DNA from: a virus
Length of the DNA stretch: 64,000 nt
Virus record (IMG/VR): IMGVR_UViG_3300031746_000002
Span: 64,001-128,000 of that record
Reading direction: 5' to 3' (one strand)
Shown here: positions 13,737-64,000 of the stretch, in pieces
How positions within the stretch are numbered: the stretch's first letter is position 1
Layout of the letters: each line of letters opens with the position of its first letter
Notes under the pieces: generated by a model
Seen by the model: the letters and a program-made list of their open reading frames with translations, nothing else
Told to the model about the DNA's origin: nothing
Databases searched by the model: none
Translations under genes and position numbers: made by a program

Positions 13737-13942
13737 AAACTAAAGAATATACAGTACCTATAGTAGCAGGTCTTCTTCAAACAGCAGCAAATCAAATTGA
13801 AGATGCATTATTAAACGATAACCGAATAACCGAGGATAATAGAGAACTACTGAAAAAATTATATCGTAGTACACAAACATCAAGTTGTTTAGCTAATCAG
13901 TTATCTCAAAACCTCAAAACACAAAAGGAGAAAATAAAATGA
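13733..13942 (+). CDS. Hypothetical protein
   Basis: GGAGG RBS, ATGA coupling on both sides. Confidence 0.55.
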   Translation: MKTKEYTVPIVAGLLQTAANQIEDALLNDNRITEDNRELLKKLYRSTQTSSCLANQLSQNLKTQKEKIK

Positions 13943-16569
13943 AATGGTTATCTAGAATAACAGCAGTTGCAACTGAAGTTGAAGAGGTAACAAAAGAAGT
14001 ATATAGACGTACGTTTGAAGATATGGCAAAGCGCTACATTGAACTCAATAAAAAAATGGAAGAGTCAGAAGCATTAATAGAACAAGCAATAGAAGAGATC
14101 AATGCAAGACTTGAAATAGCAAAGCTTACTGAAGTTACTGAAAAAGAAGAAAATATACTTAAAGCAATGCTCTATAAATTAGAGGAGCATAAAAAATCTA
14201 TAGATGGTTGGGAATTAAAATTAGCTCAAGCAAAAAAGAAATCACTCAAATCAAAAGACTTCATAGAAGAAATAACCGAAACATTTACTGAAATTAATCC
14301 TGCCTATAAGCAAATGATAGAATTCATTGCTTCAAAACATACAGAATATCCAGAACTAGATGATATTGATACTTATAAAATAACTCTTAAAAAAGAAAAG
14401 AAAGCCGGACTTAAGATAAATGCTGCTTTTGTAGAAAAATTTAAAGCAGCATTGGGTAAGTTCATAAACTGGTTAAAAGATAAATGGGACAGCATAATTG
14501 GAAAGATAGATAAAAAATATGCTGACATTGAAGATGCTATGAAAGAATTAGAAAATGCCCCGATGTTGGTAGTTAAAGAAGCTTCAATAGAAAAAGAAGC
14601 AAAATCAATAACAATTGAAGAATATAAAGCTGGAATAGTTGATGCTGTTGAAAGAGCATTTCCAGGAAAAACTTTTAGTATTGGTGTTTCTAGTATTTTA
14701 ACAGATCAGAATTTTCATACTCCTTTAGAGGCATTAGTTGAAGCTGGAATATGTGCAAAGCCAACAAGCAAATATGATTTTATGGCTATCATTGATGCAG
14801 ACAAAAAAGAAGCAGATGATTTAACGACAGTAATAGCTGATCATGATAATAAAATAGGTTATATAGGAATGGGTGGGGATAAAGTTGTTTTAGAAGAAAC
14901 AGCTTCATTAAAAAAAGAAGCAAGAGATTGGAAATATAAAGTTTACATTCCTGTTAATGCAGATAAATATGAAGACCCAACTGATGAAGGTGCATTAGAA
15001 CTTGCAAAAATAGCAGTCAATGAAATTACAAGAATACTTTCTACTGTTCCTGCTGAAAAAGATGATCTTAAAGATCAGTTAGAAAGTGTTAAGATGGAAT
15101 TTGAAGATGTTGTAGCAGTCGAAGATTTCGATGCAGCTTTAGAAACATTATATGATATGGGAGATAGTGAATCTATTTGGATAGAGACATATGAAAAGAA
15201 AGGTTCATTAAGTAAAGAAGCAGAAGAAAAAACTTTTGAAATTCCAACAGGCAATGCTCAGCTAGTATATAGTATAGATGGCATAGTAGGTGAAGAGTTT
15301 GAAGTTGATAGAGGAGGCACAATGCTTCCTATTGGAAAATATAAAGTTGTTACAAAACCAAAAGTTGATGTAGAACATTCTGGACCCTGGGGAACTTATT
15401 CAACTATCCTTGTTGAAAGAATTGCAGGGAATAGAGTTACATTGAAAAAGAAAGCAGGAGCAGTATGTAAAGAATGCGGCAAAGATATGATGGACCCAAC
15501 AGCAAAATCATGTACTTATCCTAAAATTAAGATTGATGGGGAAATCTATAATAGAGACACAGAATATTTTGATGTAAATGAAAGATGTCATGATTGTAAC
15601 ATAGTAAATAAAAAAGGAAACATACATCATTTTGGCTGCGATATTGAAAGATGTCCAAAATGTAACGGTCAAATTATAAGCTGTGAATGCAAAAAAGAAT
15701 TTCTTATTGGTCCAGATGGACAGGAAAGCAAAGCATCAATGAAAAAAGAAGCAACATCATATACTGATTTCTTAACAAACCGCGGAACTGAAATTAAACA
15801 GGCTATTAAGCAGTTAAATGAAATTCATAAAATATATGATAGTCTTTCTGAAGAAATTCTTGATAAAGCTCATGACAAAGTAGCAGGAATATATGATAAA
15901 AATGTTCCAGATTATATAGAAGATTGGGTTGCTGATGGAGATGCAGACGTTGATAGTATTGCTAGTTTAGCACTTAGTAATCAGGACAATTATGGAACAG
16001 AAAAACAAATGATATTATATGCTATAGAAGATTTTTATAACGTGATTATGAGAGGTAGAAAAGAATCTTCATTGAGAAAGAAAGCAGATAGTTATAATCC
16101 TTATATGTATACCTCTCCAACTGGTCCAGCTACTTCAGATGCTAAAACTAATCATAAGAAATATATGGTTAAATTTAAAGAAGCTGATGGGTCATGGAAA
16201 TTCTCTACAATGGAAGATGATCTTGAAGCAGCTAAGTCACAGGCACAAGAAATATATAATAATGAAAAGAAGAAATCAAAGGTAATTGATACTACTACAA
16301 GCAATGTTATCTTTGTTATAGGTGCTGAAAATAGTGAAACACTTAAACGTTATGCAAGTTTAGATGCTGATATTGATGCAATGGAAAAAAATGAACATAA
16401 AAAACATGTTGAAGGATTTAAAAAAGCAGCATCTTTACAAGCTAACATAGAAAAAGAAGTATATCAATGTGATAATTGTCATATCAGGCTTGGTAGATTT
16501 ATAAAGCAGCTTCCAGACAGTTGCCCACGCTGTGGAAAGCAAGTAAAATTTGACAATGTAATAAGGTAG
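13939..16569 (+). CDS. Putative head polyprotein 1 (MKWL leader; small domains separated by SLxKxA linkers)
   Basis: MKWLSRITA start; linkers AGLKINA, ASIEKEA, ASLKKEA, GSLSKEA, VTLKKKA, ASMKKEA, SSLRKKA; includes Cys-rich zinc-binding modules. Confidence 0.7.
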   Translation: MKWLSRITAVATEVEEVTKEVYRRTFEDMAKRYIELNKKMEESEALIEQAIEEINARLEIAKLTEVTEKEENILKAMLYKLEEHKKSIDGWELKLAQAKKKSLKSKDFIEEITETFTEINPAYKQMIEFIASKHTEYPELDDIDTYKITLKKEKKAGLKINAAFVEKFKAALGKFINWLKDKWDSIIGKIDKKYADIEDAMKELENAPMLVVKEASIEKEAKSITIEEYKAGIVDAVERAFPGKTFSIGVSSILTDQNFHTPLEALVEAGICAKPTSKYDFMAIIDADKKEADDLTTVIADHDNKIGYIGMGGDKVVLEETASLKKEARDWKYKVYIPVNADKYEDPTDEGALELAKIAVNEITRILSTVPAEKDDLKDQLESVKMEFEDVVAVEDFDAALETLYDMGDSESIWIETYEKKGSLSKEAEEKTFEIPTGNAQLVYSIDGIVGEEFEVDRGGTMLPIGKYKVVTKPKVDVEHSGPWGTYSTILVERIAGNRVTLKKKAGAVCKECGKDMMDPTAKSCTYPKIKIDGEIYNRDTEYFDVNERCHDCNIVNKKGNIHHFGCDIERCPKCNGQIISCECKKEFLIGPDGQESKASMKKEATSYTDFLTNRGTEIKQAIKQLNEIHKIYDSLSEEILDKAHDKVAGIYDKNVPDYIEDWVADGDADVDSIASLALSNQDNYGTEKQMILYAIEDFYNVIMRGRKESSLRKKADSYNPYMYTSPTGPATSDAKTNHKKYMVKFKEADGSWKFSTMEDDLEAAKSQAQEIYNNEKKKSKVIDTTTSNVIFVIGAENSETLKRYASLDADIDAMEKNEHKKHVEGFKKAASLQANIEKEVYQCDNCHIRLGRFIKQLPDSCPRCGKQVKFDNVIR

Positions 16570-16572
16570 GCT

Positions 16573-19491
16573 ATGCCACGCAAAGCAAATATTAGAGGTG
16601 TTGATTTTATAAAACCAAAGAAAACAAAAGAAAAATCACTCTTCGATTCTTTTGATAGATCAGTAGAAGCAAAGAGCAGCAACTTAGGAATATATTGGGA
16701 AGAAAATCCTGTTGGAATTAGAGAATTTGTAACAAGCTTTGACCATATGGGAATACCCAATGGTTTGAGTGATGAACAGTACGAACCATTAGAATTTTTA
16801 TTTGGAAATGAACCAAAGAAAATTTTTGATAATGGTAACACAACAGGAATTGAAGAGTGGGGCAAAGGATGTATAAGCGGTGATGCTAAAATTAGGGATG
16901 TAGAAACAGGAACAGAATATACTATTGAACAACTATATAAATTAAAAAAAGAAATAACAGTACAATGTATTGATGAAGAAAATAAAATTAGAATATCGCA
17001 AGCATCAGTTCCTTGGATTAAAGGAATAGATGATTTATATGAAGTAAAAACAAAATTGGGAAAATCAATTAAAGTAACTAAAGAACATAGATTTAAAACA
17101 CAAAATGGCTGGAAACAATTAAAAGATCTTAGAGTTGACAGCGTTATATTAGATGACAATGATAAAGTAGAATGTAAGTTATGTGGAGAATATGTAAAAT
17201 CGATTCCAAACCACTTACAATGGAATCATCCAGATATAAAGTTAAATGATTATAAATTATTATTTCCTAAAGCAAAGGTATTATCAGATACATGGAAAAA
17301 ATCATGTGGCAGAGCTGGAAAGAAACATTGGGCATTTGGAAAAAAACATCTTAATTCTGGTATAGGATTTGTTAAATATAATAAATCGAGAACTGGTAAA
17401 ACATTTAATGAATATTTTGGTAAAGAAAAAAGTAAGCAAATAAAAGAAAAAATAAAAAATACAGTAAATAAAAATAATAGTCTTTTAACATTAGCTGAGT
17501 CTAAAAAAAAATATGGACGATCTGGTAAAAAACATCATAATTGGAAAGGCGGCATTAGTTATACTTATAAAATCGGTGATACTTATTTAGGAACATTTGG
17601 AAAAAAGCTTCATGAATATATTAGGAAAAGAGATAAAAATCATTGTAAGTTTTGTAAGAAACCAGTTAAAAATAAATTCAAAGGTGATATACATCATATA
17701 AATTATAACAAACTAGATGGTAGATTAGAAAATTTAATATTACTTTGTAAAAGCTGTCATTGTAAAACGCAATATGGTTTACGAAAAGTATGGATCGAAA
17801 AATGTTTAAATAAGATAATTAAACCCAAATGGGACACTATAACATCTATTACATTTTGGAAACATGATAAATATTATGATTTGGAAGTTGAAAAATATCA
17901 TAATTATTTAGCAAATGGTTTATATAACCATAATTCAGGGAAAGATTTAATAGCAGCAATTGGCTTATGTTATATCACACATGTTTTGCTTTGTTGTTCA
18001 GACCCACAGAAGTTGTTAGGAATAGGCGATATATCTGGGGAACCAATTGACTTTGTAAATGTAGCAACAAATGCAGACCAAGCATCAACAGTATTCTTTA
18101 CAAAGTTTACTGAAAGAGTAAAGCGTTGGAAATGGTTAAAGGATAAATATAATTTTAAAGTATCAGGACGAAGTTTAAATGCATTGACTACTAATAAGAA
18201 TAAGGAAATAAATTTATTCAATGATGATGTAGTAATAACATCAAACGGTATTTTATTTCCAAAGATGATAAGAGCATTCAGTGGTAACTCAGAGCAAGAA
18301 GCCCAGGAAGGTAAGAACTATTTAGTATTCATATTAGATGAAGCCAGCGGCTTTGCAGAGACAAAGACATTAAGTGCAGAGAAGATATATAAATCATTAA
18401 AGAGTTCAGCAAGAACAAGGTTTGGTGATAAGTGGAAATGCTTCATACTTTCATTTCCAAGATATAAAGATGATTTCATAGAAGTAATGCACAAAAAAGC
18501 AAAGAAACATTTGCATTGGCACACAGCAAAATTAGCAACATGGCAAGTAAAACCACCACATTGTTTCAGCGGCAAATGGTTTGAATATGAAGGACATAGA
18601 ATTCCATTAGAATACAAAGAAGATTTTGATGATGATCCAAGAGATGCAAAAGCAAAGTTCTTATGTATTCCGCCAGATGCAATTAATCCATTTATAGAAG
18701 AACAGGAAAAGATAGAGCTTTGTATAAATAAACAACGAAAGCAAATGTTCACATGTTATGATTCTCAGAAAGATAATTACGTACAGAAGAAACTAACGTT
18801 AGCACCTTGGATTAGAGTATTGCCAGCACATACTTATACATTGACTATAGACTTAGGAGTTAGTCAATGTAGTTGCGCATTATCATTGCATCATAAAGAA
18901 ATAAAAGGAAATATAGATATAATAGTACAAGACCTTGTAACAAGATGGGAGCCTATACCAAAGAAAGGATTGAGAGTAGATTTCTTTAATGTAGGTTCAA
19001 CCATTTCAATGCTTGTAAAAACATTGGGAGTAAAACAAGTAAGAGTATTCTTTGACCAATGGCAGAGTGAATTACTAATAAACATTTTAAAGAAGATAGG
19101 TATCAATGCTTTAATATATTATTTGGGTTATGAAAACTATCAAGACTTAAGAGAAAGAATTTATACAGGCAGAATAGACCTGCTTGATTATGCACCACAA
19201 ACAAAAGAGTTAAAAGAGATTTCATTAATTAAAGGTAATAAAGTAGACAGACCAGAAAATGGAACAAAGGATATTTGCGATACAGTAGCTGGTGCAATTT
19301 ATGTTCTAACAAAATATGATGAAGAGCATAGAGATAATAGGAAAGATAAAAGAGCACTGCTAGCAAAATTAAATGACGGTGAATTTATTGGATCTAATAT
19401 TTCTGAAATTGATGGTGAAGGAAATTATATTAAGCAAGAAGAAAATGCATTTGAAGGCGCAATCAGCGTATGGGATATTGCTGGTAAATAA
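16573..19491 (+). CDS. terL: Terminase large subunit, intein-containing
   Basis: Walker A GKG|SGKD split by intein; Walker B FILDEAS; nuclease LTIDLG, FFDQWQS, KVDRP...KDICD; upstream of portal. Confidence 0.92.
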   Translation: MPRKANIRGVDFIKPKKTKEKSLFDSFDRSVEAKSSNLGIYWEENPVGIREFVTSFDHMGIPNGLSDEQYEPLEFLFGNEPKKIFDNGNTTGIEEWGKGCISGDAKIRDVETGTEYTIEQLYKLKKEITVQCIDEENKIRISQASVPWIKGIDDLYEVKTKLGKSIKVTKEHRFKTQNGWKQLKDLRVDSVILDDNDKVECKLCGEYVKSIPNHLQWNHPDIKLNDYKLLFPKAKVLSDTWKKSCGRAGKKHWAFGKKHLNSGIGFVKYNKSRTGKTFNEYFGKEKSKQIKEKIKNTVNKNNSLLTLAESKKKYGRSGKKHHNWKGGISYTYKIGDTYLGTFGKKLHEYIRKRDKNHCKFCKKPVKNKFKGDIHHINYNKLDGRLENLILLCKSCHCKTQYGLRKVWIEKCLNKIIKPKWDTITSITFWKHDKYYDLEVEKYHNYLANGLYNHNSGKDLIAAIGLCYITHVLLCCSDPQKLLGIGDISGEPIDFVNVATNADQASTVFFTKFTERVKRWKWLKDKYNFKVSGRSLNALTTNKNKEINLFNDDVVITSNGILFPKMIRAFSGNSEQEAQEGKNYLVFILDEASGFAETKTLSAEKIYKSLKSSARTRFGDKWKCFILSFPRYKDDFIEVMHKKAKKHLHWHTAKLATWQVKPPHCFSGKWFEYEGHRIPLEYKEDFDDDPRDAKAKFLCIPPDAINPFIEEQEKIELCINKQRKQMFTCYDSQKDNYVQKKLTLAPWIRVLPAHTYTLTIDLGVSQCSCALSLHHKEIKGNIDIIVQDLVTRWEPIPKKGLRVDFFNVGSTISMLVKTLGVKQVRVFFDQWQSELLINILKKIGINALIYYLGYENYQDLRERIYTGRIDLLDYAPQTKELKEISLIKGNKVDRPENGTKDICDTVAGAIYVLTKYDEEHRDNRKDKRALLAKLNDGEFIGSNISEIDGEGNYIKQEENAFEGAISVWDIAGK
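16870..17934 (+). mobile_element. Intein (355 aa) carrying a C2H2 zinc finger and an HNH homing endonuclease
   Basis: N-terminal C(ISGD), block B VTKEHRF, C-terminal YDLEVEKYHNYLANGLYNHN followed by Ser; CKFC...DIHHINYNK..NLILLCKSCH. Confidence 0.93.
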
Positions 19492-19502
19492 AGGAGGAAA
19501 TA

Positions 19503-21161
19503 ATGTTAACAAAGCAAGCAATAATAAATGACCTTAAAAAGATTTTGGCTTATTCAACCCAGAAACTTAGTGCTATGTCATTAGATGATATAGAAGAAGA
19601 ATTTGGAAATTTGTATGATACTATAAAATGGTCAAAAAAGAATGTAACTGCTGAACAGCTGAAAACAATAATACTTGATATAAACAAAAGATTCAATGTT
19701 GAAGATATAGAACAAAAACTAGAAGATATATTTGATAAAATTGATAGTGTTATTAGCAGAGCTGCTTCATTAGAAAAGAAAGCAGCTATTGATAACTTGA
19801 TGGAATTGATGGATCGAGACTTTGAAATCACTGATGCAGACATGGTTGAATTAAAAGAAGATGAAATTGAATTCGTATTAAAGCACCCAGCAAAATTTGA
19901 TATGAAAGCAAATGAAATTAAAAGTCTAGAAGATAAGTTAAAGCGGCTTAGGGCATCATTGAAAAAAGAAGCAATACTCAGTGTTGGTACTGAAGTAGAA
20001 ACTCTTGATGGTTCTGGAGTAATAACTAAAGTTAAAGATATGGGATTGAACGATTCTTATTATACTGTAAAATTAGAAAATGGGGAAGAGCATGATTATT
20101 ATCCTGATGCTAAAGAAGTATGGCTTAAAGCTACATTAGAAAAAGAAGCAGGATTAGGAAAGCATATTGCAGAAACATTAGAAGCAGCTGGAATTAATGT
20201 AGCTTTTGAAATGAGTGAGGATGGAATTATAGTTGAAGATGAAAAGGATGCAAAGAAAGTAATGAAAGTTCTTGATGACTCTGGTAGCTTTGGACCCACA
20301 GCATATAATAATGAAACTAAAGAAATTATGATAGGAGAGTATAAAGAAAAGAAATCTTTATTAAAAAAAGAAGCTTCAAAATATACACGTTGGGCATCAA
20401 CTGATAGCCAAGAAGAAGCCATTGAAACTATAGAAGAAACACTTAATCTATTAGGTATTAAACTTGGCGGAGGAACTGCTATAGGTAAATCACCACAAAC
20501 TGTGATTTTAGATATTAAATATCAAGACGGTGCAATAAGTGTTAATGCTGAAGGTGAAGTTAAATTATTCGGTGATGATGTTACTGGCATAATTAATGAA
20601 AAAGATGGCATAGCAGATAAATTAAAAGAAAATGGTATTGAAGTTAAAGAATCAACTGAAGCTAATCCAAACTATGAAATCAAAACAGGTTCTGCTAATG
20701 AGCTTAAAGAAATAGAAGCAAGCATCAGGAAGAACCACCCAAACATTACAGACCTTGAAGTAGGAAGGCAGATGAGGGATATTATAACAGTAGCAAAAGG
20801 GAAAGCTACAGATAAGAAAGTTATTGCAAGATTAACAACAGCAGAAATCAGTAACATGTTTCCAGAATTTGATAAGACAGGAGGGGTATGGCAAGTGGAA
20901 GAAAAAAATGGTAAGAAGACAATCATACGACCTGACATTAAAGCTATTGAAGAAGCAGTAGAAAACAAAGGGCATATCAGAAAGGTTAATGATATAGTCC
21001 TTTATGATGATGGAAGTCCAGATAGCAAAATGTTTGAAGTCCAGATAAAAGAAATCCTTGATGGCGGCAAATACAAGGTTATAGCAATGCAAACAGGTAA
21101 AGAATTCACAGCAGTGGAATCACAGCTCCTAGATGAGTCAAAAATTGAAGAGCTAATGTAA
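19503..21161 (+). CDS. Putative head polyprotein 2
   Basis: AAGGAGG RBS; MLTKQA start; linkers ASLEKKA, ASLKKEA, ATLEKEA, SLLKKEA; two SH3/Tudor-like modules. Confidence 0.7.
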   Translation: MLTKQAIINDLKKILAYSTQKLSAMSLDDIEEEFGNLYDTIKWSKKNVTAEQLKTIILDINKRFNVEDIEQKLEDIFDKIDSVISRAASLEKKAAIDNLMELMDRDFEITDADMVELKEDEIEFVLKHPAKFDMKANEIKSLEDKLKRLRASLKKEAILSVGTEVETLDGSGVITKVKDMGLNDSYYTVKLENGEEHDYYPDAKEVWLKATLEKEAGLGKHIAETLEAAGINVAFEMSEDGIIVEDEKDAKKVMKVLDDSGSFGPTAYNNETKEIMIGEYKEKKSLLKKEASKYTRWASTDSQEEAIETIEETLNLLGIKLGGGTAIGKSPQTVILDIKYQDGAISVNAEGEVKLFGDDVTGIINEKDGIADKLKENGIEVKESTEANPNYEIKTGSANELKEIEASIRKNHPNITDLEVGRQMRDIITVAKGKATDKKVIARLTTAEISNMFPEFDKTGGVWQVEEKNGKKTIIRPDIKAIEEAVENKGHIRKVNDIVLYDDGSPDSKMFEVQIKEILDGGKYKVIAMQTGKEFTAVESQLLDESKIEELM

Positions 21162-21337
21162 GTCATATGAAAATACCTGAATGGGTATTAAAATTGAGCA
21201 GAAGACTCCAGGAACGATATGGCGATGATGTAGGGAAGGTATTATTTATTGCTATAGGATTAATTGTAATAATAGCATTATTCGTATACATGCAATTCAC
21301 AGTTTACAGCATACTATCTAAATGAGGAGGAAACAGT

Positions 21338-22558
21338 ATGGAATTCATTAAAAGCAACACAGACCTTGTTGATAACCAAAGATCTGAGGAAACAGAAAAT
21401 GGAGACCCAGTATTAAATGCACTTAAAAAGAAAGCAGGCAGCACAGGTGATTACAATGTAACAAGATGGTTGTCTGATAGAAGCTTTGCAGGAACAAACA
21501 CAAAGCAAGAAATCATTGAGCTCGACAGACAGCTTATAAAAATGATAAACGAAAAAATGTTCGGTTATAAATATATAGAAGAATATCTGTCAACAGTAGG
21601 CTACCAGAAAGCATTGATACGTGCAAGGTTTAAAGTTTTAACAGGTGCAGATTATGAGGACTTTATGCCTTATGCAAAGTTCTTAAAGACTCCTCCAACA
21701 ATTCCTGGAATTAACTACGGCTGGGGAGTAAGTAAAGATTCTAAGTACGAACATTATTTCATTCAGCCATATTATCTGGGATATTCTATCTGGGGGCAAA
21801 AGGGTTATCTTGATAGGAAAGAAGTCAATGCATTTCTTACACTGGAACTTGCACAGAAAGCAATGGAGAAACTAGTAAAAGAATTTATCTATTATGATGT
21901 AATTGTAGATGTACCAGCAACACAGAAACCAGTATTACTTACAGAGCCAGTTGGTACATATGAAAGAGGGCAGAGAAAACAAGAACAGCAAGACATTGCA
22001 ATGAAGAAAGCAATGTTAGAAATTCAAGCCGATAGTGATGCAGATGAAGAGCCTTCACCCGAAGAAACAGCGAAAAAGGAGGAAACGATGGAAGAGGCTG
22101 ATAAGAGGAAACAAATTCCATTTGACTCAATTCGAAAAGAACTTACTCCTCATGATATGTTTGAAAATGAGAAACAAGAAGTTTCTGGAGATATAGTTCC
22201 AAAGACAATAAAGAAAGTTGTTGATTACATAAAAGCAAAAGATGAAGCTATCACTGCTTATGTAGTTACAATAGATAGTTTCAAATATAAGCAAGAGGAA
22301 CTTGAGTCTATCATAAAGAATGTTACTCCTGCTATAGAAGAGGAAAAGGTTGAAGAGTATTTCACATCAAACGCAGTAATTACAGTAGTGATTAATATAC
22401 AGAATAAGAAAGCATCAACAGGCAACATGAAACAAGGCTACATGGTTTTCACAGTTTTTAATGGTGATGTAGTTAGTGATGATACATTCAAAGGTGAAGA
22501 CGATAAGATATATGGTCTTACTGAAGCTGGACTAGATCAGTACTTCAGTATAAGATAA
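21338..22558 (+). CDS. Virion/head-associated protein (hypothetical)
   Basis: GAGGAGG RBS; ALKKKA motif near N-terminus; directly upstream of portal. Confidence 0.55.
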   Translation: MEFIKSNTDLVDNQRSEETENGDPVLNALKKKAGSTGDYNVTRWLSDRSFAGTNTKQEIIELDRQLIKMINEKMFGYKYIEEYLSTVGYQKALIRARFKVLTGADYEDFMPYAKFLKTPPTIPGINYGWGVSKDSKYEHYFIQPYYLGYSIWGQKGYLDRKEVNAFLTLELAQKAMEKLVKEFIYYDVIVDVPATQKPVLLTEPVGTYERGQRKQEQQDIAMKKAMLEIQADSDADEEPSPEETAKKEETMEEADKRKQIPFDSIRKELTPHDMFENEKQEVSGDIVPKTIKKVVDYIKAKDEAITAYVVTIDSFKYKQEELESIIKNVTPAIEEEKVEEYFTSNAVITVVINIQNKKASTGNMKQGYMVFTVFNGDVVSDDTFKGEDDKIYGLTEAGLDQYFSIR

Positions 22559-54780: not shown

Positions 54781-55257
54781 ATGAATCGAGATAATAACAT
54801 TATGCATTTCCGCGTTTATCGTCGGGAAAAAGGAAACATAGTTTTTTGTTGGAACAATGAAAAACTAACCGACGATCAGCGAAGTAACGTAGGTATTTTT
54901 GTTGAACAAAATGGTGAGTGGAAAGTAGTTATTCATCACTTAGTAGACTCATTACAATATCCAAGAATTGCAACAGAAAGTAAACAGATTATTGGAGCTG
55001 TAGTGAAGGAAAGTGAGAACCAACTAGTTTCTACGAAACCCTACGACTTCGTTCTAAGACTGGGGAAAAAAGAACCAGTAGAAGGGTACAAAACAGTTTT
55101 TCCAGAAAACGACTTGAAAGAGACTAGCGACGATAAAAAGAAAGATGTCCATTTAAGGTTATGGGACAGCAACGAAAAAGTCTGGAGAAAAGCTGAAGGC
55201 AAATTTAATAAGGACGGAAAATTTTGCCTACTTACACTGCCCAGCAACGAAGCGTAG
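54781..55257 (+). CDS. Hypothetical virion protein
   Basis: AGGAG RBS; within head operon. Confidence 0.55.
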   Translation: MNRDNNIMHFRVYRREKGNIVFCWNNEKLTDDQRSNVGIFVEQNGEWKVVIHHLVDSLQYPRIATESKQIIGAVVKESENQLVSTKPYDFVLRLGKKEPVEGYKTVFPENDLKETSDDKKKDVHLRLWDSNEKVWRKAEGKFNKDGKFCLLTLPSNEA

Positions 55258-55304
55258 TTCTTCTATAGTCTAAAGTAATATGAATTAATGGAGGAACTAC
55301 CAAT

Positions 55305-56066: not shown

Positions 56067-56077
56067 GGAGTACTAAG

Positions 56078-56464
56078 ATGGAATGGTTAAAAAAGATTGC
56101 TAAGGCAAAATATGAAAAGGACGACATTGTAATTCTTGATGATAAGACACAAGGAAAAATAGAAGATATACGATCTGAAAGAGTATGGCAAAAAGTTGTT
56201 TATGTCTATGATCTTAAAATACTCGATGGCCCAGATAAAGGAAAAAAATTGGAGAATGTAAATGAAAGAGCAATAGTTAAGAAAGCATCATTACATAAGA
56301 AAGCAGAAGAGACTGATGCTGAAAGAGCTTCAGGTATTATAATGCTCGCATTAGACAATTTTAGTGATGGAAAATTAAAAATTACAAAAAAGGGTCCTCA
56401 GATTTTAAAAGTTGAAACACCAGATGGGTTTAAATTTGAAATAAATATTGCATTAATATATTAA
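56078..56464 (+). CDS. Leader-tagged two-module protein (SH3-like plus small domain)
   Basis: MEWLKKIA leader; internal ASLHKKA linker. Confidence 0.65.
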   Translation: MEWLKKIAKAKYEKDDIVILDDKTQGKIEDIRSERVWQKVVYVYDLKILDGPDKGKKLENVNERAIVKKASLHKKAEETDAERASGIIMLALDNFSDGKLKITKKGPQILKVETPDGFKFEINIALIY

Positions 56465-56473
56465 GGAGCTAAC

Positions 56474-56701
56474 ATGAACTGGTTAAATAGAAAGGCAATG
56501 CAAACTGTTACTGTAGAAATTTCATCTCATGAATTTAGTAAAATTATAACTAAATTACAAAAGCTTACTAATAAGCCAATTAATTTTGATAAGGCAATAA
56601 AAATCATTGTTCAAAATTTTCTTAATAAGCATTTTCAAATAGAACAATTTGATGAAACAGATATTCAATGGCTGAAAGATGATATAGATAAAATGGTATA
56701 A
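56474..56701 (+). CDS. Leader-tagged small protein (RHH-like)
   Basis: MNWLNRKA leader. Confidence 0.6.
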   Translation: MNWLNRKAMQTVTVEISSHEFSKIITKLQKLTNKPINFDKAIKIIVQNFLNKHFQIEQFDETDIQWLKDDIDKMV

Positions 56702-56711
56702 GGAGAATAAC

Positions 56712-57155
56712 ATGAAATGGTTAAAAATAGAATCTCAGCCAGAAGCATCAGTAATGTTAAATGAAAACCAATATAATCGCATTACAGATTTTATTGGTAA
56801 TTTAGCATTAACACTTAAACAGGATAAAGCTTGGGATAAATCAATTGAAGATGCAATTAATGAACTTAAGAAAAGACTGGACAAAAAAGTAGTTGTTACT
56901 GAGACTATTCAAAACAGTTTAAATAAAGAAGCAGCTGGTGAAAGAGCTAATGTTCTTAAAGCGCTTGAAAAGATGAAAGCATCGTTGGAAGATTTGTATG
57001 AACTTGGAAATGTGTTGGTTCCACAAATGAAAGAAATTGGGTTAGAGTATAATACAACAGATATGTTTCAAAAGCAGATAGTAAATGTAATAGGATTACG
57101 AATCATAGATATATTAGAAGATATTACTGAAGATGTACGACATCTAGAAATGTAA
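56712..57155 (+). CDS. Leader-tagged two-module helical protein
   Basis: MKWLKIES leader; internal NSLNKEA linker. Confidence 0.6.
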   Translation: MKWLKIESQPEASVMLNENQYNRITDFIGNLALTLKQDKAWDKSIEDAINELKKRLDKKVVVTETIQNSLNKEAAGERANVLKALEKMKASLEDLYELGNVLVPQMKEIGLEYNTTDMFQKQIVNVIGLRIIDILEDITEDVRHLEM

Positions 57156-57163
57156 GGTATATA

Positions 57164-58525
57164 ATGAAATGGTTAGACAAGCAATCATCAATACTAGATT
57201 ATGGAAAGCCGGGACTAGACGAAGCAGTCTGGGACCCGACGAGTGATTTTAAACTATATCCAGAACATAAGATACAAATTCTTAAAAGACTCTATGATTA
57301 TTTAGAAGCAAATAAATATACACATCATAATGAATGGATATTAACAGGCAGAATAGTTGGTTCGTTAACAAGTTGGAGATATAGTTCATGGACAGACATT
57401 GACTGTCATTTCATTATAAGCTATGGTAAGTTTGGTGAAGTAGAACTTAATGGAACACATGATACAGAAACAATTCAAGAGTCATTGAATGAAATTCAGA
57501 AAAGTCTTAATCGACATAATGTTCCAACACTGGGAAATACACGGCATCCAATAGAATATTATTTTGAAAACCGTGATGACCTTACTGAAGCTGAATTAAA
57601 ACGGTTGAAACTTATAGCAGCAAAAGCAGTTGTTAAGGACGGTGAATATAATTTTGACCCAAAAGATTTTACAGTCAAGAATGATAAATGGACAGTGCCT
57701 GCAAGAAAGATAGATGTAGATTATGATTATGAAGAAATATATAAAAATCTTATTCCTGTTGTAGAAGAAACAATGGAAGAGTTTGATATTTCATTGGGTA
57801 AGATAGATAGGAAGATAACGCAGGTAGAATATTTGGATGATTCGCTTAAAGCATTTAGCAATGACCAAAAGAAGTTATTCAAAGAAAAGATAGAAAAGAA
57901 GCTTGATGAAATTGAAGCTGAAATTCATAATCTTATTAAAACAGGTGAAGCGGCCCATGAGAAAAACAAGGAAGAATTCTTAGCAGATGATTTTGAAGAA
58001 GGCGGAATAGGGAACCTCACATTTAAGTGCCTTCAGAAATATGGATATTATTATATTTTAGTTAAATTGAAAGAGCTGCTTGGAGAAGATAAAGAAGTAA
58101 CAATGGAAAATGTAGATGAGGTAAAAGATATCGTTGAAACAAGGAGGGAAAGCAAAATGGAATGGTTAAATATTAAAGCAGGCGGATTAAACCAAAAAAC
58201 AATAGACTCTGTTGATATAACAGATTTAGAAACAAAAGTTATGGGAATAGTTGGAACAGAAGTTAAATTTAAAAAATCTCTTAGCAATAAGGGAAATTTA
58301 GAACTTGAAAGTCAAGACTTAGTTAATAAAGCTGGTGTCATGAGTCCAGTTTTTAAAACATTGAAAATAGAAACATTCAATACAGAATACAGTGCTAAAG
58401 AAGATGTTATATGGATAACACTTGATTTTCGTTTTGAATTAAAAAATGGTGGGTCTAATGGTGTTCATTTATTAACAGCATGGTATAACTTTGATACTAA
58501 TGATTGGACATTCAGAGAGGAATAA
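57164..58525 (+). CDS. Leader-tagged Pol-beta-superfamily nucleotidyltransferase fused to a second leader-tagged module (internal start 58157)
   Basis: MKWLDKQS; IVGSLTS..YS..TDIDCH (GS...DxD), HPIEYY; AGGAGG plus MEWLNIKA at 58157. Confidence 0.75.
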   Translation: MKWLDKQSSILDYGKPGLDEAVWDPTSDFKLYPEHKIQILKRLYDYLEANKYTHHNEWILTGRIVGSLTSWRYSSWTDIDCHFIISYGKFGEVELNGTHDTETIQESLNEIQKSLNRHNVPTLGNTRHPIEYYFENRDDLTEAELKRLKLIAAKAVVKDGEYNFDPKDFTVKNDKWTVPARKIDVDYDYEEIYKNLIPVVEETMEEFDISLGKIDRKITQVEYLDDSLKAFSNDQKKLFKEKIEKKLDEIEAEIHNLIKTGEAAHEKNKEEFLADDFEEGGIGNLTFKCLQKYGYYYILVKLKELLGEDKEVTMENVDEVKDIVETRRESKMEWLNIKAGGLNQKTIDSVDITDLETKVMGIVGTEVKFKKSLSNKGNLELESQDLVNKAGVMSPVFKTLKIETFNTEYSAKEDVIWITLDFRFELKNGGSNGVHLLTAWYNFDTNDWTFREE

Positions 58526-58526
58526 T

Positions 58527-59108
58527 ATGAACTGGTTAAACATCAAAGCAAAGAACGATATCCTTTATAAAATAACATTCGATGGTAAGGAATATTATAA
58601 ACGTGCAGATTCTGAAAGCCAAGCATTCAGATATTTCGTTGCATCAAAAATAAAAGAAAGTACTGATGGAATATTCTGGTTCAATCGAAATAGTTATAAT
58701 AAAGACATGATAGGATTAGCAGTTAAGAAACTTATGGAATCTGATGTCAAAATTGAGATTGTCAAGGAGGCGAGTATGAACTGGAATAAAAGAGAAGCAA
58801 ATGAACTAAGCAATAAAGAAATAAAAGATTGTATAAAGGCAATGAGTAAAGAAGAATTAGAAGAAAACCTTATTTATTTAGTTAATGAAATGAGTGATGA
58901 AGATACAAAAGAATTTTTAGGATTAGAAATGAAAGCTGTATTATTAAATAAAAAAGCAGACGAAGAGAAAAAGAAAATACATGTAGAAAAATTACAGGAA
59001 GATGCATATAATTGGTGGAACAACCTTGATGATGGTACAACACAAAAAATAATTACTGAATTATATATGAAAGAAAATAATATTACTGATAAAGATGTTG
59101 ACTGGTAA
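58527..59108 (+). CDS. Leader-tagged three-module protein
   Basis: MNWLNIKA; internal RBS plus MNWNKREA at 58776; LLNKKA linker. Confidence 0.65.
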   Translation: MNWLNIKAKNDILYKITFDGKEYYKRADSESQAFRYFVASKIKESTDGIFWFNRNSYNKDMIGLAVKKLMESDVKIEIVKEASMNWNKREANELSNKEIKDCIKAMSKEELEENLIYLVNEMSDEDTKEFLGLEMKAVLLNKKADEEKKKIHVEKLQEDAYNWWNNLDDGTTQKIITELYMKENNITDKDVDW

Positions 59109-59119
59109 AGGAGATTAAC

Positions 59120-59677
59120 ATGAAATGGTTAAAGATAAATGCAGATGTTACACCTTCACAAGTCTTTGATGAACTAACAGCAGACATGATTGAGGGAATA
59201 ATTAAGTATCATGAAAGATGGTACAAAAAAGAAGAACCAATTAAAATGGAAACAGTTGATAAATATATATTAGGTTATATGGGTGATATAAAATCTGCTG
59301 TAGTTGAAGGGTTAAAAAAGAAGGGAATTAAAATTGAGGGAGGTTTGAATATGAATTGGAATAAAAGAGAAGCACAGGAAAAAACAGTGTATTCAAAAAT
59401 AATTGATATATTTGGAAGGGAAGCAAAAGTTATAGCTTTTTATTATCCTGATGAGTTGAAAGATATGACTCGTATTCATGCACGTATTGATTGCAGAATA
59501 GATACACCCAAAGAACAATATGCATCACAGACTATAGTTCTATATACTATCCCTGTAATAATAATTACAAAAGATACTGAAGTAAGGAAGAATTATTTTG
59601 AAAAAGGATATAAAGTTTTTGAAATTATTGAACAGGCTGAAAAATACATAACAGATTTTGCAGAAGGACTTGAATAA
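59120..59677 (+). CDS. Leader-tagged two-module protein
   Basis: MKWLKINA; internal RBS plus MNWNKREA at 59351. Confidence 0.65.
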   Translation: MKWLKINADVTPSQVFDELTADMIEGIIKYHERWYKKEEPIKMETVDKYILGYMGDIKSAVVEGLKKKGIKIEGGLNMNWNKREAQEKTVYSKIIDIFGREAKVIAFYYPDELKDMTRIHARIDCRIDTPKEQYASQTIVLYTIPVIIITKDTEVRKNYFEKGYKVFEIIEQAEKYITDFAEGLE

Positions 59678-59688
59678 AGGGAGGAATA

Positions 59689-62600
59689 ATGAATTTTAAT
59701 CTAATTGGGTTAATAAAGCAGGCAAGTAATGCAATATTTGCTAATAAGGGAAAAGAAGAAGCACTAAAAGAATGGGCGCAAGATAAATTTGTAAAAGAAA
59801 CAAAAGAAGGTGTCACATATGATTTTGACTGGGCTGAAATTAAGAAAGAAGGACAGTCGATTGAGATGACAGACAAGCAGATAGATAATGTAATCGAGAA
59901 ACTGAAGAAGGTATCTTCATTGAAAGTGGAAGCAGGCAAACAAATTGTAAAAATATATTATAAAGATCATGTTGAAATGAGAGGCACAGGAATTACTAAA
60001 GTTGAGATTGATGGAGAGCAAGAAACAGCAGACAGATTTTTTGAAAGTTTATTAGAGAATATTTCTGCTGACTTACCAGAATTTTCAGATGAAGATGTTC
60101 ACATATACGTTGGAAACTTAACGCTTTGGACATATGATATTATGTTTGATGCGCAGCCAGAAGTTGATTTGGATAAATATGAGAAATGGCTTGATGAAAA
60201 TTATAAGATAGAATTTATAAAAGAGACCGAAACTTCATTAAAACAATCTTGGCTCGAAACAGAAGAAGCAGTTGGGCCAGATACAGAATATGCTGCAATT
60301 AGATTTCCTGAAGAAGTATCGCAAGGACTTGTTTTTAGGCTTCCTAAAGATTTTGCTTATAATAAAAAAGACCCGCAGGCTGGTCATGAAGTTACAGTTC
60401 AATTATCCTATCCAGAAACAGCAGAAATATTACGGCTCAATGATGATGGCACTATAAATATTAAGATAAAGTATAATGGAGATATTGTCAAAAATTTAAA
60501 TCCAAAAGAATTAAAAGCATCGTTAGAAATAGAAGCATCAGCATACACTGATTTTGTAAAGAGTTATTATAAGGAACATGAAGGTGCAAAGCCTGGAGAT
60601 AAAAAAACAATGCAAGAAATAGGCAAGGCATGGAAAGCATGGAAAATAAAGCATCCTAAAAAGAAAGCATGGTTAAGTAACAAAGCTTATGGTAAATTTC
60701 AAATAGGTGATCAAGTTATAGATGATAATAATGACATAGGTTATGTTAGTGAAGTTAATACAAATAATACATATGATATTGAATATACAAAACTTGATAA
60801 CTTAAAAAGAATTGAAACTGTTCCTGAAGACGAATTAAAAAAAGTAGAATCGAGATTAACCAAAGCAGACTATGAAGAATTTCCTACATATTTTACAGGA
60901 AATGATTTACATCTTACGTTGAGTGCTGAGTCTGTTCCTGATAAAATAAATGATATTGAACAAACAATTTGGGATAGTGATAATCAACAAGCAACAGATG
61001 AATGGGATAGAGAAGCAGAAAAAGTTTTAGATTTAGCTGGTAAAGAATATTGGGAAGAAGCTTTTAAGAATGATCCAAGAGTTGAAGAGATAGTTAGCTT
61101 CGGAATAGAATTAATGAAAAGATATAATATTCCATATCCAAAAAGAAAAGGTTCATTTAATAAAGAAGCAGCTACAAAATCAATAGATGAAATGTCCAAA
61201 GATGAAGCAAAGGAATTATGGAAATCATATGGCGGAGATTTTGATAAATGTGTAAAGAAGGCAGGTAGCTGGGCAAAATCACCAGAGTCATACTGTGCAG
61301 CACTCGCAAAGAAGGCTACAGGTAAAACACCAAAAGAATTAGCTGCATGCCCAGAATGTGGATTGAATATTGAAGCTTCAGCATATACTGATTTTGTAAG
61401 TAAATATTTTAAGTCTCATCCTGGTGCAAAGTTTAAAGATATTGCGAAAGCATGGAGAGCTGGTAAAAAACCATCTAAGAAAGAAGCACCAAAAGAGAAA
61501 GCTCCAGAAAAAGAAGAAAAGAAAGCATGGTTAACTAAAGCAGATGTTGATGATATTCCATCAGCTATCACAAGAGATACGTTGCATTTAGATGCAGATA
61601 AAGAAAAAGCAAGAAAAAGAGAAGAATTTGGATTTCTTCCAATATATGAAATTGGAGATAAAGTAGAAGATATGTATAGCAAACCTGGTAGGAAGGGAAA
61701 GATTTTAGAATTTTCATCAGAAGGAACAGTATTAATAAAATGGGATAATGGTGAAAAGTCTTATCAAGATATGGGTGATATTAAAAAGGCATCATTGCAT
61801 TTGGATGCTGATGATGAATTAAAGATTGGTGATAAAGTAGAATGGAAAGAAGATGTTAGTCAATTACACGATATAGCAGACATGCAAGAATATTGTGGAA
61901 AAGTATTATCAATTAAACCTGGTAGAGGAATGAGTCCCATTGTTGAAGTGAAATTAGAAGACTCTGGTGAAATAGTAGATGTAGAAAGAAATTTCTTGCA
62001 TAAAGTTAAAGCATCATTAAATAAAAAAGCATATCATCCAAGTTGGGAAGATTATAAATATTCTAAAGATCCAAAAGAAGTAGAATTATACAACAAGATT
62101 AAAGAGCAAGCAACTAAAGCAATGGATGATATTGTTAAGATATTGCAAGCAAAGAACTTAGTTGTTAAACGAGTAAGTTTTAAAAAAGTAATTGTAGAAC
62201 AGAAAGATTTATTTGATGGATTTCTTACTATTGAAGTACATGATATGGCATCTAAAATTTCTGATGAATTTGATGAAAATGCAGAACCAATGATTTCAAT
62301 GGATTCAATAGTAGTTCCTAAAGGTGAAACTGATAGAAGAAAATGGAAAGGTGATGTTGCTTCTGCTATGAGTATATCTGAATTTGAAAAGAAACTAGAT
62401 GAACAGTTAGAATATGTACAAAGTGTAACTAAAGAATCACCAATGCATCGCTGGATGGAAAAAGCATCATTGAATAAAGAAGCAAAGATAAAGAAATTAC
62501 CCAATGGCAAATATCGAGTAATGGCAGAAACTGGCAGGAATATGGGAACATACGATACTGAAAAAGAAGCAAAGGAAAGATTGCAACAAATTGAGATGTT

Positions 62601-64000
62601 TAAACATATGAAAAAAAAGAAATCATGGTTAAGTAAAAAAGCATTAGATAGAACAGAATGGGATTTAATAAATGAAGCAGTTGCTGATGTTATTGCTAAT
62701 TTTAAAAAAATAACAAAAATAGAACCGTGGAAAACTATAGATCCTAAAGGACAATTTTATCAGGAGGTAGTTAATAAAACATATCCTACAATTATAGAGT
62801 ATTTAAAGAAAAATTTTCCTGATATAATTGAAGACGGTAAAATTAAATATGAAGAATTTTTATATAGGATGGATGAGGAATTAATGTCATATGCAGACCA
62901 AGCAGTTGAAATGTATAAACAAGAACATGGAATATATCCTGAACCGGCTTTATTAAGAAAACAAGCATTTATCCCAGGTAAAGAAGCATTAGTAGTTCTT
63001 GAAGATTTTAACAAAGACCAGAAACAAATATACCCTGATGCTGCTGATACAGGAATAGTAACAAAGGATAAAGAAGGAACATATCAAGAAGTAGATGCCA
63101 AAATACAGAAAGCATTAGATGAGCTACTTGAAATATATAAAGCAGATATTAGTGAATATACTGGTGGAAAGCACTGGGAAATATTTATTCCTGTTGAAGA
63201 AGATGGAAAATATCTTGCAGGATATTATGTATCAGTTAGTAAAAATACAGACAAAGCAAGAGGTATAGAGTTCTTTAGCATCGATATCATGCATGAAAGA
63301 AGGGAAAACGTTAATGTTAATGATTTCTATAAAAAGACAGCTTGGTTAAAAAAAGCAGCTAATGATTATTCAAAAGCTGAGAAAAGTAAAAATAAAATAA
63401 TAGAACAATTACAGCAAAGAGCAAACACTAAAGGTATTCGTGAAAACTGGGGAGACAAAGAACTTAGACAATACCAAGATTGGTTGGAAACTTTAAATTT
63501 AACATATGCAGAAAAATCTAGTTTATATGTTGCACTATCACAAGCACTCAGTTCTATGACTGAAACAAAAGCTTCATTAAAACATAAAGCAGATGATGAA
63601 CTTTCAGCAGAAGATAAAACTGTAATCGCTAAGGGAAAAGAAATACTTGAGAAAATGAAAAAAGAAAATGTTGATATACTTGATATCGATGCTTATGAAC
63701 CTACAGGAGATATAATGATGCTAGTAGGTGAGGGCATTGCTGATGCTATAAATTCGCATGGTAAAAACTTCTTTGAATGGGATATTAAAATGGGAAAAAT
63801 TAATATTCCTGATGAAGTTAGAACTAAAATCAATGATGATAAATTAAATCGAATATATCAAGATGAAGCGCAATTAAATGTAAAGACATTGGGCGATGAA
63901 ATTGTAGATGGATATTCTTGGGCAGAAGATTGGTATCAAGAAGGCAGGATGGGTGGTTGGTTCTGTATTGAAGCTGATTTCAATGAATTGGTTAGTGATA
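59689..64000 (+). CDS. Giant putative head polyprotein 3 (>1430 aa, 3'-truncated; absent from the ORF track because it has no stop in the window)
   Basis: GGGAGG RBS, ATG 59689, open frame to window end; at least 14 [SW]L-x-x-x-A-type linkers; HMG-box-like and SH3/KOW-like modules. Confidence 0.85.
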   Translation, partial: MNFNLIGLIKQASNAIFANKGKEEALKEWAQDKFVKETKEGVTYDFDWAEIKKEGQSIEMTDKQIDNVIEKLKKVSSLKVEAGKQIVKIYYKDHVEMRGTGITKVEIDGEQETADRFFESLLENISADLPEFSDEDVHIYVGNLTLWTYDIMFDAQPEVDLDKYEKWLDENYKIEFIKETETSLKQSWLETEEAVGPDTEYAAIRFPEEVSQGLVFRLPKDFAYNKKDPQAGHEVTVQLSYPETAEILRLNDDGTINIKIKYNGDIVKNLNPKELKASLEIEASAYTDFVKSYYKEHEGAKPGDKKTMQEIGKAWKAWKIKHPKKKAWLSNKAYGKFQIGDQVIDDNNDIGYVSEVNTNNTYDIEYTKLDNLKRIETVPEDELKKVESRLTKADYEEFPTYFTGNDLHLTLSAESVPDKINDIEQTIWDSDNQQATDEWDREAEKVLDLAGKEYWEEAFKNDPRVEEIVSFGIELMKRYNIPYPKRKGSFNKEAATKSIDEMSKDEAKELWKSYGGDFDKCVKKAGSWAKSPESYCAALAKKATGKTPKELAACPECGLNIEASAYTDFVSKYFKSHPGAKFKDIAKAWRAGKKPSKKEAPKEKAPEKEEKKAWLTKADVDDIPSAITRDTLHLDADKEKARKREEFGFLPIYEIGDKVEDMYSKPGRKGKILEFSSEGTVLIKWDNGEKSYQDMGDIKKASLHLDADDELKIGDKVEWKEDVSQLHDIADMQEYCGKVLSIKPGRGMSPIVEVKLEDSGEIVDVERNFLHKVKASLNKKAYHPSWEDYKYSKDPKEVELYNKIKEQATKAMDDIVKILQAKNLVVKRVSFKKVIVEQKDLFDGFLTIEVHDMASKISDEFDENAEPMISMDSIVVPKGETDRRKWKGDVASAMSISEFEKKLDEQLEYVQSVTKESPMHRWMEKASLNKEAKIKKLPNGKYRVMAETGRNMGTYDTEKEAKERLQQIEMFKHMKKKKSWLSKKALDRTEWDLINEAVADVIANFKKITKIEPWKTIDPKGQFYQEVVNKTYPTIIEYLKKNFPDIIEDGKIKYEEFLYRMDEELMSYADQAVEMYKQEHGIYPEPALLRKQAFIPGKEALVVLEDFNKDQKQIYPDAADTGIVTKDKEGTYQEVDAKIQKALDELLEIYKADISEYTGGKHWEIFIPVEEDGKYLAGYYVSVSKNTDKARGIEFFSIDIMHERRENVNVNDFYKKTAWLKKAANDYSKAEKSKNKIIEQLQQRANTKGIRENWGDKELRQYQDWLETLNLTYAEKSSLYVALSQALSSMTETKASLKHKADDELSAEDKTVIAKGKEILEKMKKENVDILDIDAYEPTGDIMMLVGEGIADAINSHGKNFFEWDIKMGKINIPDEVRTKINDDKLNRIYQDEAQLNVKTLGDEIVDGYSWAEDWYQEGRMGGWFCIEADFNELVSD

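Follow-up and report, generated by a model that had tools for sequence, protein, structure and literature searches.

In phage phiKZ the protease gp175 cuts at S/A/G-x-E, and the capsid targeting sequence of the internal proteins of phage T4 was reportedly described by Mullaney and Black in 1996. The T4 protease gp21 follows the cleavage rule I/LxE (PMC12991175), and gp245 of phage SPN3US the rule A-x-E, with 14 sites in 9 substrates (PMC10052503). The assemblin of a herpesvirus, pseudorabies virus, is predicted to cut YLQA-T and VQA-S (PMC4498786). For polyvalent proteins, which carry many unrelated domains per polypeptide and are encoded next to virion genes, packaging, delivery along with the DNA and proteolytic release by embedded peptidase domains have been proposed (MPTase; Iyer et al. 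2017, PMC5512222). We analyse here a 64,000-nucleotide stretch of viral DNA (the window; bases 64001-128000 of the ∼138.9 kb, ∼31% G+C record IMGVR_UViG_3300031746_000002 of IMG/VR), in which a short peptide motif, hydrophobic-x-[KR]-x-[AS], recurs on head proteins, at the starts of small late proteins and at the joints of polyproteins.

Our overall reading, which we regard as probable, is that this motif is a head-protease signal borne by head proteins, leaders and polyprotein joints, and that the cargo so marked is loaded into the prohead and diced. The parts of this reading differ in strength. The motif is very likely the site of this genome's own head protease; loading of the tagged proteins and polyproteins into the prohead is rather likely; and that the pieces are ejected and then act in the next host is a tentative extension. 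In the proposed mechanism, hydrophobic-x-[KR]-x-[AS] would serve as both recognition and cleavage signal of the head-maturation serine protease (49700-52153), sharpened in this genome to [AS]-[SW]-L-x-K-[KE]-A, and a cut after the Ala/Ser would put the hydrophobic residue at P5 and Lys/Arg at P3. N-terminal copies would mark short propeptides on the major capsid protein (MCP), the portal, the protease, open reading frame (ORF) 21338 and about ten small late proteins, an 8-residue M-x-W-L-x-K-x-A start acting as address and cut site at once. Polyproteins would co-assemble into the prohead core via their N-terminal motif, maturation would dice them into roughly 35 or more small proteins, and the folded products would remain inside the capsid as internal proteins. 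By analogy, such a system would work like T4 capsid targeting with gp21 and like the head proteolysis of giant phages, and would differ from both in its motif, in its short leader and in its sites, most of which lie between unrelated folded domains instead of trimming propeptides.

An earlier note on this DNA had proposed a genome-wide L-x-[KR]-x-A processing code, and the peptides it quoted are all present: AGLQRQA in MCP (residues 24-30), AALKREA in the portal (51-57), SFLKKAA in the protease (39-45) and ALKKKA in ORF 21338 (28-33). Of 202 called ORFs, 190 lie on one strand (plus), and these 190 proteins (43,173 amino acids (aa)) were compared with 300 within-protein shuffles. L-x-[KR]-x-A matches 61 times, against a shuffle mean of 26.1 (standard deviation 5.1, maximum 41); the counts are 12 versus 1.43 expected in ORF 59689, 6 versus 0.71 in ORF 13939 and 5 versus 0.46 in ORF 19503. 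A tighter pattern chosen post hoc, [AGST][SW]L...A, gives 26 versus 3.3. The position-specific scoring matrix (PSSM) that we derived has the consensus [EK]-K-K-[AS]-[SW]-L-x-K-[KE]-A-[ADG] and finds 43 sites versus 2.9 in shuffles; at a score of at least 9 it places 6 + 4 + 11 = 21 linker copies in the window, and 26 once ORF 59689 is taken at full length, where about 25 had been claimed. The note had not noticed the motif in replication or accessory proteins, and in counts with a relaxed motif the head/polyprotein block is the sole region with an excess (94 observed, 54.8 expected), the tail block having 37 against 38.3 and the early/accessory genes 81 against 98.9. The enrichment of the motif in head and polyprotein proteins is real and statistically solid. 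For the clade, the pattern as first written is too narrow: the consensus there reads hydrophobic-x-[KR]-x-[AS], in which the hydrophobic position may be filled by the initiator Met.

Four conserved proteins of the head block carry the motif:

21338..22558, plus strand: conserved head-block protein, 406 aa; sites NALKKKA 21416-21436 and AMLEIQA 22010-22030
22585..24516, plus strand: portal (phrog_16240, 2.5e-41); site AALKREA 22735-22755, 15 residues before the RVP..(Y/F)VDP core
49700..52153, plus strand: head maturation protease (residues ∼46-250) fused to a scaffold-position C-terminal region (phrog_18299); sites GFYRQA 49733-49747 and SFLKKAA 49814-49834
52870..53823, plus strand: major capsid protein (phrog_2522); site AGLQRQA 52939-52959

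Position and motif are kept together in relatives of these proteins. Among 120 metagenomic MCP relatives (∼43-57% identity), 33 have no match to a GPNGLKR-type anchor and one has too short an N-terminus; in 74 of the 86 evaluable homologs hydrophobic-x-[KR]-x-[AS] is found 19-35 residues ahead of the anchor, against 15.8 expected. In the 12 misses, which make up a subgroup, the hydrophobic residue and the Ala are retained and V/I replaces K/R; the subgroup matches locus L027, whose protease N-terminus is likewise without K/R (n=1). In an alignment of 40 MCP sequences, conservation at Ala30 is 90% or higher. The nearest isolate by MCP is Bacillus phage G (31% identity), whose MCP (gp27) has no propeptide and whose Met1 aligns to residue 32, two past the motif Ala. 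The MCP of Rhodococcus phage E3 (23% identical, with GSGLGRFA near its N-terminus) was set aside as evidence, being too distant.

With the MCP alignment we retrieved 24 related IMG/VR loci, of 28% to 60% G+C; a search with the protease alone gave no loci. The loci keep the block of ORF 21338 homolog, portal, protease, (scaffold), decoration and MCP. The portal motif lies 12-20 residues before the RVPLLYVDP core in 16/16 relatives (1.7 expected), a set drawn from 22 loci with a portal match by excluding L014, L019 and L025 (near-identical), L007 (ORF starting past the region) and L020/L021 (locus edge). Homologs of ORF 21338 sit directly 5′ of the portal gene and have [ILF]-K-K-x-[AGS] near their N-termini, some of them starting about at our predicted cut position. 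The protease itself begins M(A/S)?[FW]-x-[KR]-x-[ASG] in 14 of 20 relatives. The SPN3US gp245 and phiKZ gp175 systems resemble the present one in carrying one short motif on MCP, portal, protease and ejection-protein precursors, with multiple cuts per precursor. In SPN3US, however, the extra cuts have Glu at P1 and mostly dismantle long N-terminal propeptides, whereas the sites here separate folded, unrelated domains.

The protease gene matches a PHROG head maturation protease profile at 1.5e-17. Its N-terminal 260 residues were modelled with AlphaFold2 (AF2) from 20 homologs, at a mean predicted local distance difference test (pLDDT) of 79.6. Compared by VIA, the model has Z 10.7 to T4 gp21 (5jbl; root mean square deviation 2.8, 128 aligned) and Z 8-10.4 to herpesvirus proteases, the highest of these to that of varicella-zoster virus (10.4), with unrelated rows from Z ∼6. 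Foldseek ranks the T4 gp21 and herpesvirus families first, at E ∼6e-3 only. As modelled, the protease has the T4 gp21/herpesvirus assemblin fold. Three residues, H97, S148 and H174, are invariant in 20 protease sequences and, as candidate catalytic residues, echo the Ser-His-His triad of assemblin (PMC4498786). In relatives, separate ORFs located between protease and MCP align with the C-terminal 300 residues, which makes the gene a protease-scaffold fusion like herpesvirus UL26; the gene order protease (with scaffold region), ORF 52191, MCP is the same in relatives.

Herpesvirus assemblin (UL26) thus resembles this protein in fold and in having an N-terminal protease fused to a scaffold region, and it cuts after Ala with a hydrophobic residue upstream (PMC4498786), as the cut predicted here would. 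It differs in that its hydrophobic residue is at P3, rather than at P5 with a basic P3, and in that a herpesvirus has two or three sites and no cargo polyproteins. The 'new Ala-P1 specificity' that had been proposed would set this enzyme apart from the usual phage prohead proteases, yet it is not new to the fold, since the herpesvirus assemblins cut after Ala.

Two further features of the protease family were seen. A nearly invariant, zinc-finger-like CxxC..CxH cluster lies inside the protease domain (residues ∼158-174, window 50170-50225); to our knowledge it is not a feature of gp21 or assemblin. Searching PDB chains with the protease as single sequence and as profile gave only a weak zinc-finger-like match to this insert. 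At L020:4857-8339 (and in L021) a protease ORF of 1160 aa follows the family alignment up to the predicted catalytic-Ser motif SMGC and departs from it directly afterwards, with what looks like an intein; a prohead protease would be an uncommon place for one.

Downstream of MCP, the start M-x-W-[LN]-x-x-x-[AS] recurs exactly nine times in the window, where the earlier note had nine or more (56078, 56474, 56712, 57164, 58157, 58527, 58776, 59120, 59351), three of these (58157, 58776, 59351) being in-frame internal ATGs:

56078..56464, plus strand: leader protein MEWLKKIA; internal site ASLHKKA 56285-56305
56474..56701, plus strand: leader protein MNWLNRKA
56712..57155, plus strand: leader protein MKWLKIES; internal site NSLNKEA 56913-56933
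57164..58525, plus strand: leader protein MKWLDKQS; module 1 (residues 9-339) nucleotidyltransferase-like, module 2 from ATG 58157 (MEWLNIKA)
58527..59108, plus strand: leader protein MNWLNIKA; internal start 58776 (MNWNKREA), site VLLNKKA 58938-58958
59120..59677, plus strand: leader protein MKWLKINA; internal start 59351 (MNWNKREA)

The start of ORF 13939, MKWLSRITA, is one residue off this pattern. Trp occupies residue 3 in 10 of the 190 proteins, at an overall Trp frequency of 1.1%. The T4 internal proteins (IPI-III, Alt) are similar in having a short N-terminal leader that ends in the head-protease motif, and T4 also has the motif on capsid and core proteins, the same protease fold and the genes among head genes. 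The differences lie in the motif (hydrophobic-x-[KR]-x-[AS] with a probable small P1 here, L/I-x-E with Glu in T4), in the leader, which has 5-8 residues here, and in the sites, most of which are internal here and join up to 17 or more unrelated modules, whereas T4 internal proteins are single.

ORF 57164 has an Atlas score of 0.97 to viral NTP_transf_2 clusters and structural neighbours that carry NTP_transf_2, which is a lead, and no Pfam match; a 1642-aa ORF in L013 opens with a region homologous to its N-terminal 324 aa. Among ten leader-tagged or neighbouring ORFs, Pfam matches only three, all outside the window: DUF5661 (65994), KTSC (66239) and LigD_N (71710, a leaderless neighbour). 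AAGGAGG-like runs precede the in-frame ATGs that open M-x-W-[LN] modules in longer ORFs, at 58157 (AAGGAGG itself), 58776, 59351 and genome position 130479.

In four ORFs, of 876, 552, 2100 and 1219 aa, motif sites join mutually unrelated modules of 50-570 aa. Three such polyproteins had been claimed and all three are there; the fourth lies wholly outside the window. The linkers in this list were placed by PSSM, with scores where given, except for the weaker one marked:

13939..16569, plus strand: polyprotein A, 876 aa, starts MKWLSRITA, at least 7 modules
14581..14601, plus strand: linker ASIEKEA, residues 215-221, PSSM 19.1
14902..14922, plus strand: linker ASLKKEA, residues 322-328, PSSM 23.7
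15202..15222, plus strand: linker GSLSKEA, residues 422-428, PSSM 23.2
15436..15456, plus strand: linker VTLKKKA, residues 500-506, PSSM 14.8
15733..15753, plus strand: linker ASMKKEA, residues 599-605, PSSM 21.3
16066..16086, plus strand: linker SSLRKKA, residues 710-716, PSSM 23.4
19503..21161, plus strand: polyprotein B, 552 aa, starts MLTKQA (motif 19506-19520), 5 modules
19764..19784, plus strand: linker ASLEKKA, residues 88-94, PSSM 20.6
19953..19973, plus strand: linker ASLKKEA, residues 151-157, PSSM 22.0
20130..20150, plus strand: linker ATLEKEA, residues 210-216, PSSM 22.1
20355..20375, plus strand: linker SLLKKEA, residues 285-291, PSSM 21.7
59689..64000, plus strand: polyprotein C, 2100 aa, N-terminal GLIKQA 59710-59724, at least 17 modules; extends 1991 bases beyond the window
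59914..59934, plus strand: linker SSLKVEA, residues 76-82
60517..60537, plus strand: linker ASLEIEA, residues 277-283
60667..60687, plus strand: linker AWLSNKA, residues 327-333
61150..61170, plus strand: linker GSFNKEA, residues 488-494
61525..61545, plus strand: linker AWLTKA(D), residues 613-619
61789..61809, plus strand: linker ASLHLDA, residues 701-707
62011..62031, plus strand: linker ASLNKKA, residues 775-781
62464..62484, plus strand: linker ASLNKEA, residues 926-932
62623..62643, plus strand: linker SWLSKKA, residues 979-985
62947..62967, plus strand: weaker linker ALLRKQA, residues 1087-1093
63340..63360, plus strand: linker AWLKKAA, residues 1218-1224
63571..63591, plus strand: linker ASLKHKA, residues 1295-1301, PSSM 25.5
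67771-71430 (window numbering, outside the window): fourth polyprotein, 1219 aa

Cutting at the sites gives 58 segments, mostly of 50-130 aa, with one paralogous pair among them; the beads-on-a-string description is apt, and a reading as repeat proteins was rejected on the same count. Relatives too hold motif-punctuated multi-module ORFs (L008 2-1435, L007 4140-5657, L013 14563-19491). Across the four polyproteins, the Pfam matches at or above the curated cutoff are AAA ATPase and DUF815 only, both on one module of the fourth, where KOW and wHTH matches fall below that cutoff. Polyprotein A has no significant Pfam or PHROG match; zinc-ribbon-like CxxC pairs were noticed in it by eye. Together with the nucleotidyltransferase-like module of ORF 57164 and the AAA ATPase match, these pairs are all that hints at a function of the cargo. 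No MPTase/peptidase, LPD, MuF, ART or methylase-helicase match was found in the four (Pfam/PHROG, E≤0.01 / 1e-3).

The polyvalent proteins are alike in joining many unrelated domains in one polypeptide and in being encoded next to virion genes (PMC5512222). Here, by contrast, no peptidase or LPD-type Pfam domain was found and the modules are much smaller; the main text of that article has 0 occurrences of 'linker' and discusses no common linker motif. We found no published description of head-protease linkers in phage polyproteins, in a search whose coverage left out most subscription journals; the 'polyprotein' of PMC7689252 is a fused replicase and not relevant.

The motif sites coincide with domain boundaries. 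HMMER comparison of polyprotein C residues 1-1200 with 1.84 billion representatives gave 349 matches at E≤1e-3, most of them to single modules and many of them small stand-alone proteins. Of the 18 stand-alone homologs of module 1094-1200, 8 start at most 3 residues from A1093. For module 933-985 the motif is at the boundary in 53 of 80 homologs, against a background of ∼6%, many having it as M-[IN]-K-x-[AS] at the very start. Smaller samples show the motif at the boundary in 1/6 (A82), 1/4 (A494) and 4/9 (A985) homologs, with 3, 0 and 2 starting there. A tblastn search of 50,697 phage records with the KLPNGKYRV-type module gave no match. The cut most likely falls directly after the motif Ala/Ser, to judge indirectly from the start of the phage G MCP, the 8 of 18 stand-alone homologs starting at Ala+1, the conservation on the N-terminal side of the site and the start of a modelled domain right after A932.

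Structure prediction agrees with this placement. The earlier note had suggested checking with AlphaFold whether motifs fall in linkers, and the four tested sites lie between high-confidence domains or next to them, in linkers or edges modelled with low confidence. The AF2 model of residues 920-1235 (27-row alignment; mean pLDDT 78.7) has three domains, with most 10-residue blocks above 90; its predicted template modelling score of 0.41 is as expected for loosely tethered domains. The pLDDT is below 50 in four segments, 920-927, 979-986, 1088-1107 and 1231-1235. Sites that end at A932, A985 and A1093 overlap the first three of these, and the A1224 site is on the falling-confidence C-terminal edge of the third domain, ahead of the last segment. 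The first strand of the first modelled domain begins at residue 933, right after A932. Foldseek comparison of the three-domain model with PDB and BFVD gave nothing informative, the best match being an uncharacterised uncultured-phage protein (3.1e-4).

One homolog shows the same boundary with another linker. In P0128 (677 aa), a copy of module 986-1083 with 42% identity has ESKV[KN]E on its flanks, and the linker ESKVKE ends 2 residues from the end of our SWLSKKA. SK[VI]xE linkers number six in P0128, four in P0173 and two in P0127. A module boundary that is kept while the linker differs is what one would predict were the joints in each phage clade to bear the code of that clade's protease.

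Several points weigh against the reading of the motif as a cargo-loading protease signal. The PSSM statistic is partly circular, since the training sites came from this very proteome; the relaxed motif, being short, matches often (∼1.2% of positions), so that single instances mean little; and homologs that share the motif share ancestry, so that their counts are not independent events. The absence of an MCP propeptide from phage G concerns the nearest isolate. For module 1094-1200 the motif is at the boundary in 1 of the 18 homologs, and 9 of the 18 have neither motif nor start there. Pfam recognises no effector domain in the four polyproteins. The internal ATGs with Shine-Dalgarno-like runs could supply some modules without proteolysis, and in 23/25 cases TCA is the codon for the Ser that precedes the Leu, a bias not explained by a purely peptide-level signal.

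Four other explanations were weighed. The motif could be a head-protease site on polyproteins that are not delivered, serving instead as disposable prohead core or filler cut up to make room for DNA, or processed in the cytoplasm by free protease to express many small late proteins. Core and scaffold proteins of T4 are indeed degraded by gp21, which is active in cells when expressed alone (PMC12991175), the propeptides of SPN3US undergo several cuts and for the most part exit the head (PMC10052503), and most modules have no recognised effector-type domain. We nevertheless think this unlikely: the modules are compact folded domains of 50-570 aa, predicted with high confidence and unlike debris leaving via capsid pores; they are mutually unrelated and stand alone in other phages, which fits function over filler; and the polyprotein genes lie inside the head block. 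Still less probable is a motif that stays uncut, as a docking or assembly peptide (binding, for example, scaffold, portal or MCP) and an intact flexible linker. AF2 shows linkers and nothing beyond, and the virion RNA polymerase of phage N4 is packaged unprocessed despite a peptidase domain (PMC5512222). A merely docking peptide sits poorly, however, with a motif at the MCP propeptide/mature boundary, where the phage G protein begins, and at the extreme N-terminus of the protease in the 14 relatives counted above; with stand-alone homologs that begin at Ala+1; and with the Glu-ended, T4-protease-like linker at the same boundary in another clade.

At the nucleotide level, the motif might be a by-product of a ∼21-nt joint for module shuffling by recombination, or of a signal for translation re-initiation or regulation. 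The TCA bias, purine-rich codons 5′ of the motif and the in-frame ATGs with Shine-Dalgarno-like runs before some modules speak for this. We hold it to be very improbable, since the mean pairwise identity of the 21-nt cores is only 0.66 and most codons are mixed (GCA 13 / GCT 10), the peptide is kept in relatives whose loci span 28% to 60% G+C, and the motif is found at the N-termini of single-copy core genes, where there is no joint. Cleavage of the motif by another protease, of host or phage, has room in that the family-library screens covered selected ORFs of the 190; its chance is slight, given that no peptidase domain was found in the four polyproteins, that protease N-terminus, MCP and portal are classic prohead-protease substrates (PMC10052503) and that the motif is confined to the head block.

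We keep to the head-protease reading as the probable one. The processing-code claim stands in so far as the motif behaves as a protease signal on MCP, portal, protease, ORF 21338, leaders and linkers, by comparative, boundary and fold evidence. For the uncultured myovirus clade as a whole we propose, tentatively, a portable address-and-cut peptide (down to M-x-K-x-A) that would bring any small protein bearing it into the prohead for trimming, an assemblin-like protease with Ala at P1, and fusable cargo polyproteins of at least 20 modules, with modules re-flanked between clades by the local code (S-W-L-x-K-K-A here, E-S-K-V-N-E in a T4-type clade).

If this is true, a substrate rule would be readable from sequence for a very large, so far uncharacterised group of phage head proteases (>120 MCP clusters at 90% identity). 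A phage protease of the gp21/assemblin fold would cut after a small residue, like the herpesvirus enzymes, and a P1-Ala rule would link phage and herpesvirus maturation proteases functionally. One genome would encode ∼45 virion-internal proteins, including a nucleotidyltransferase-like enzyme and an AAA ATPase, and these would be candidate factors for anti-defence or for taking over the host early, arriving together with the DNA. Foreign proteins could be brought into capsids with the leader as a very short tag, and protease-coded cargo polyproteins would be a general, evolvable delivery device of large phages. How phages choose the proteins that travel in the head is a long-standing question, here made testable and suited to simple biochemistry.

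Some observations on codons and gene context complete the description. The codons used at the position before the invariant Leu, TCA (S), TGG (W) and TTA (L), each lie a single step away from TGA. Four head genes were assigned by PHROG profiles: the terminase large subunit, portal, head maturation protease and major head protein. The first of these lies between polyproteins A and B:

16573..19491, plus strand: terminase large subunit with intein and HNH insert (Pfam, PHROG)

Its intein is matched by Pfam Intein_splicing at 7.2e-17 (residues 112-454), with HNH at 358-397. A tail sheath gene at genome positions 9295-11010 marks the phage as a myovirus. Between portal and protease, which are adjacent or nearly so in relatives, lie ∼25 kb of small, mostly unannotated genes (24635-49054). 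A 438-aa ORF 3′ of the fourth polyprotein (L001:15710-17023; 71710-73026 in window numbering, outside the window) has a LigD 3′-phosphoesterase domain (Pfam, 4.2e-16). The MCP homolog P0107 (49% identity) is filed under a Heimdallarchaeaceae metagenome-assembled genome, which could be a binning artefact or a hint at the hosts of part of the clade. An identical peptide-coding stretch is present at both ends of the record (genome 52-90 and 138865-138900), which suggests a terminal overlap and hence a complete, circularly assembled genome.

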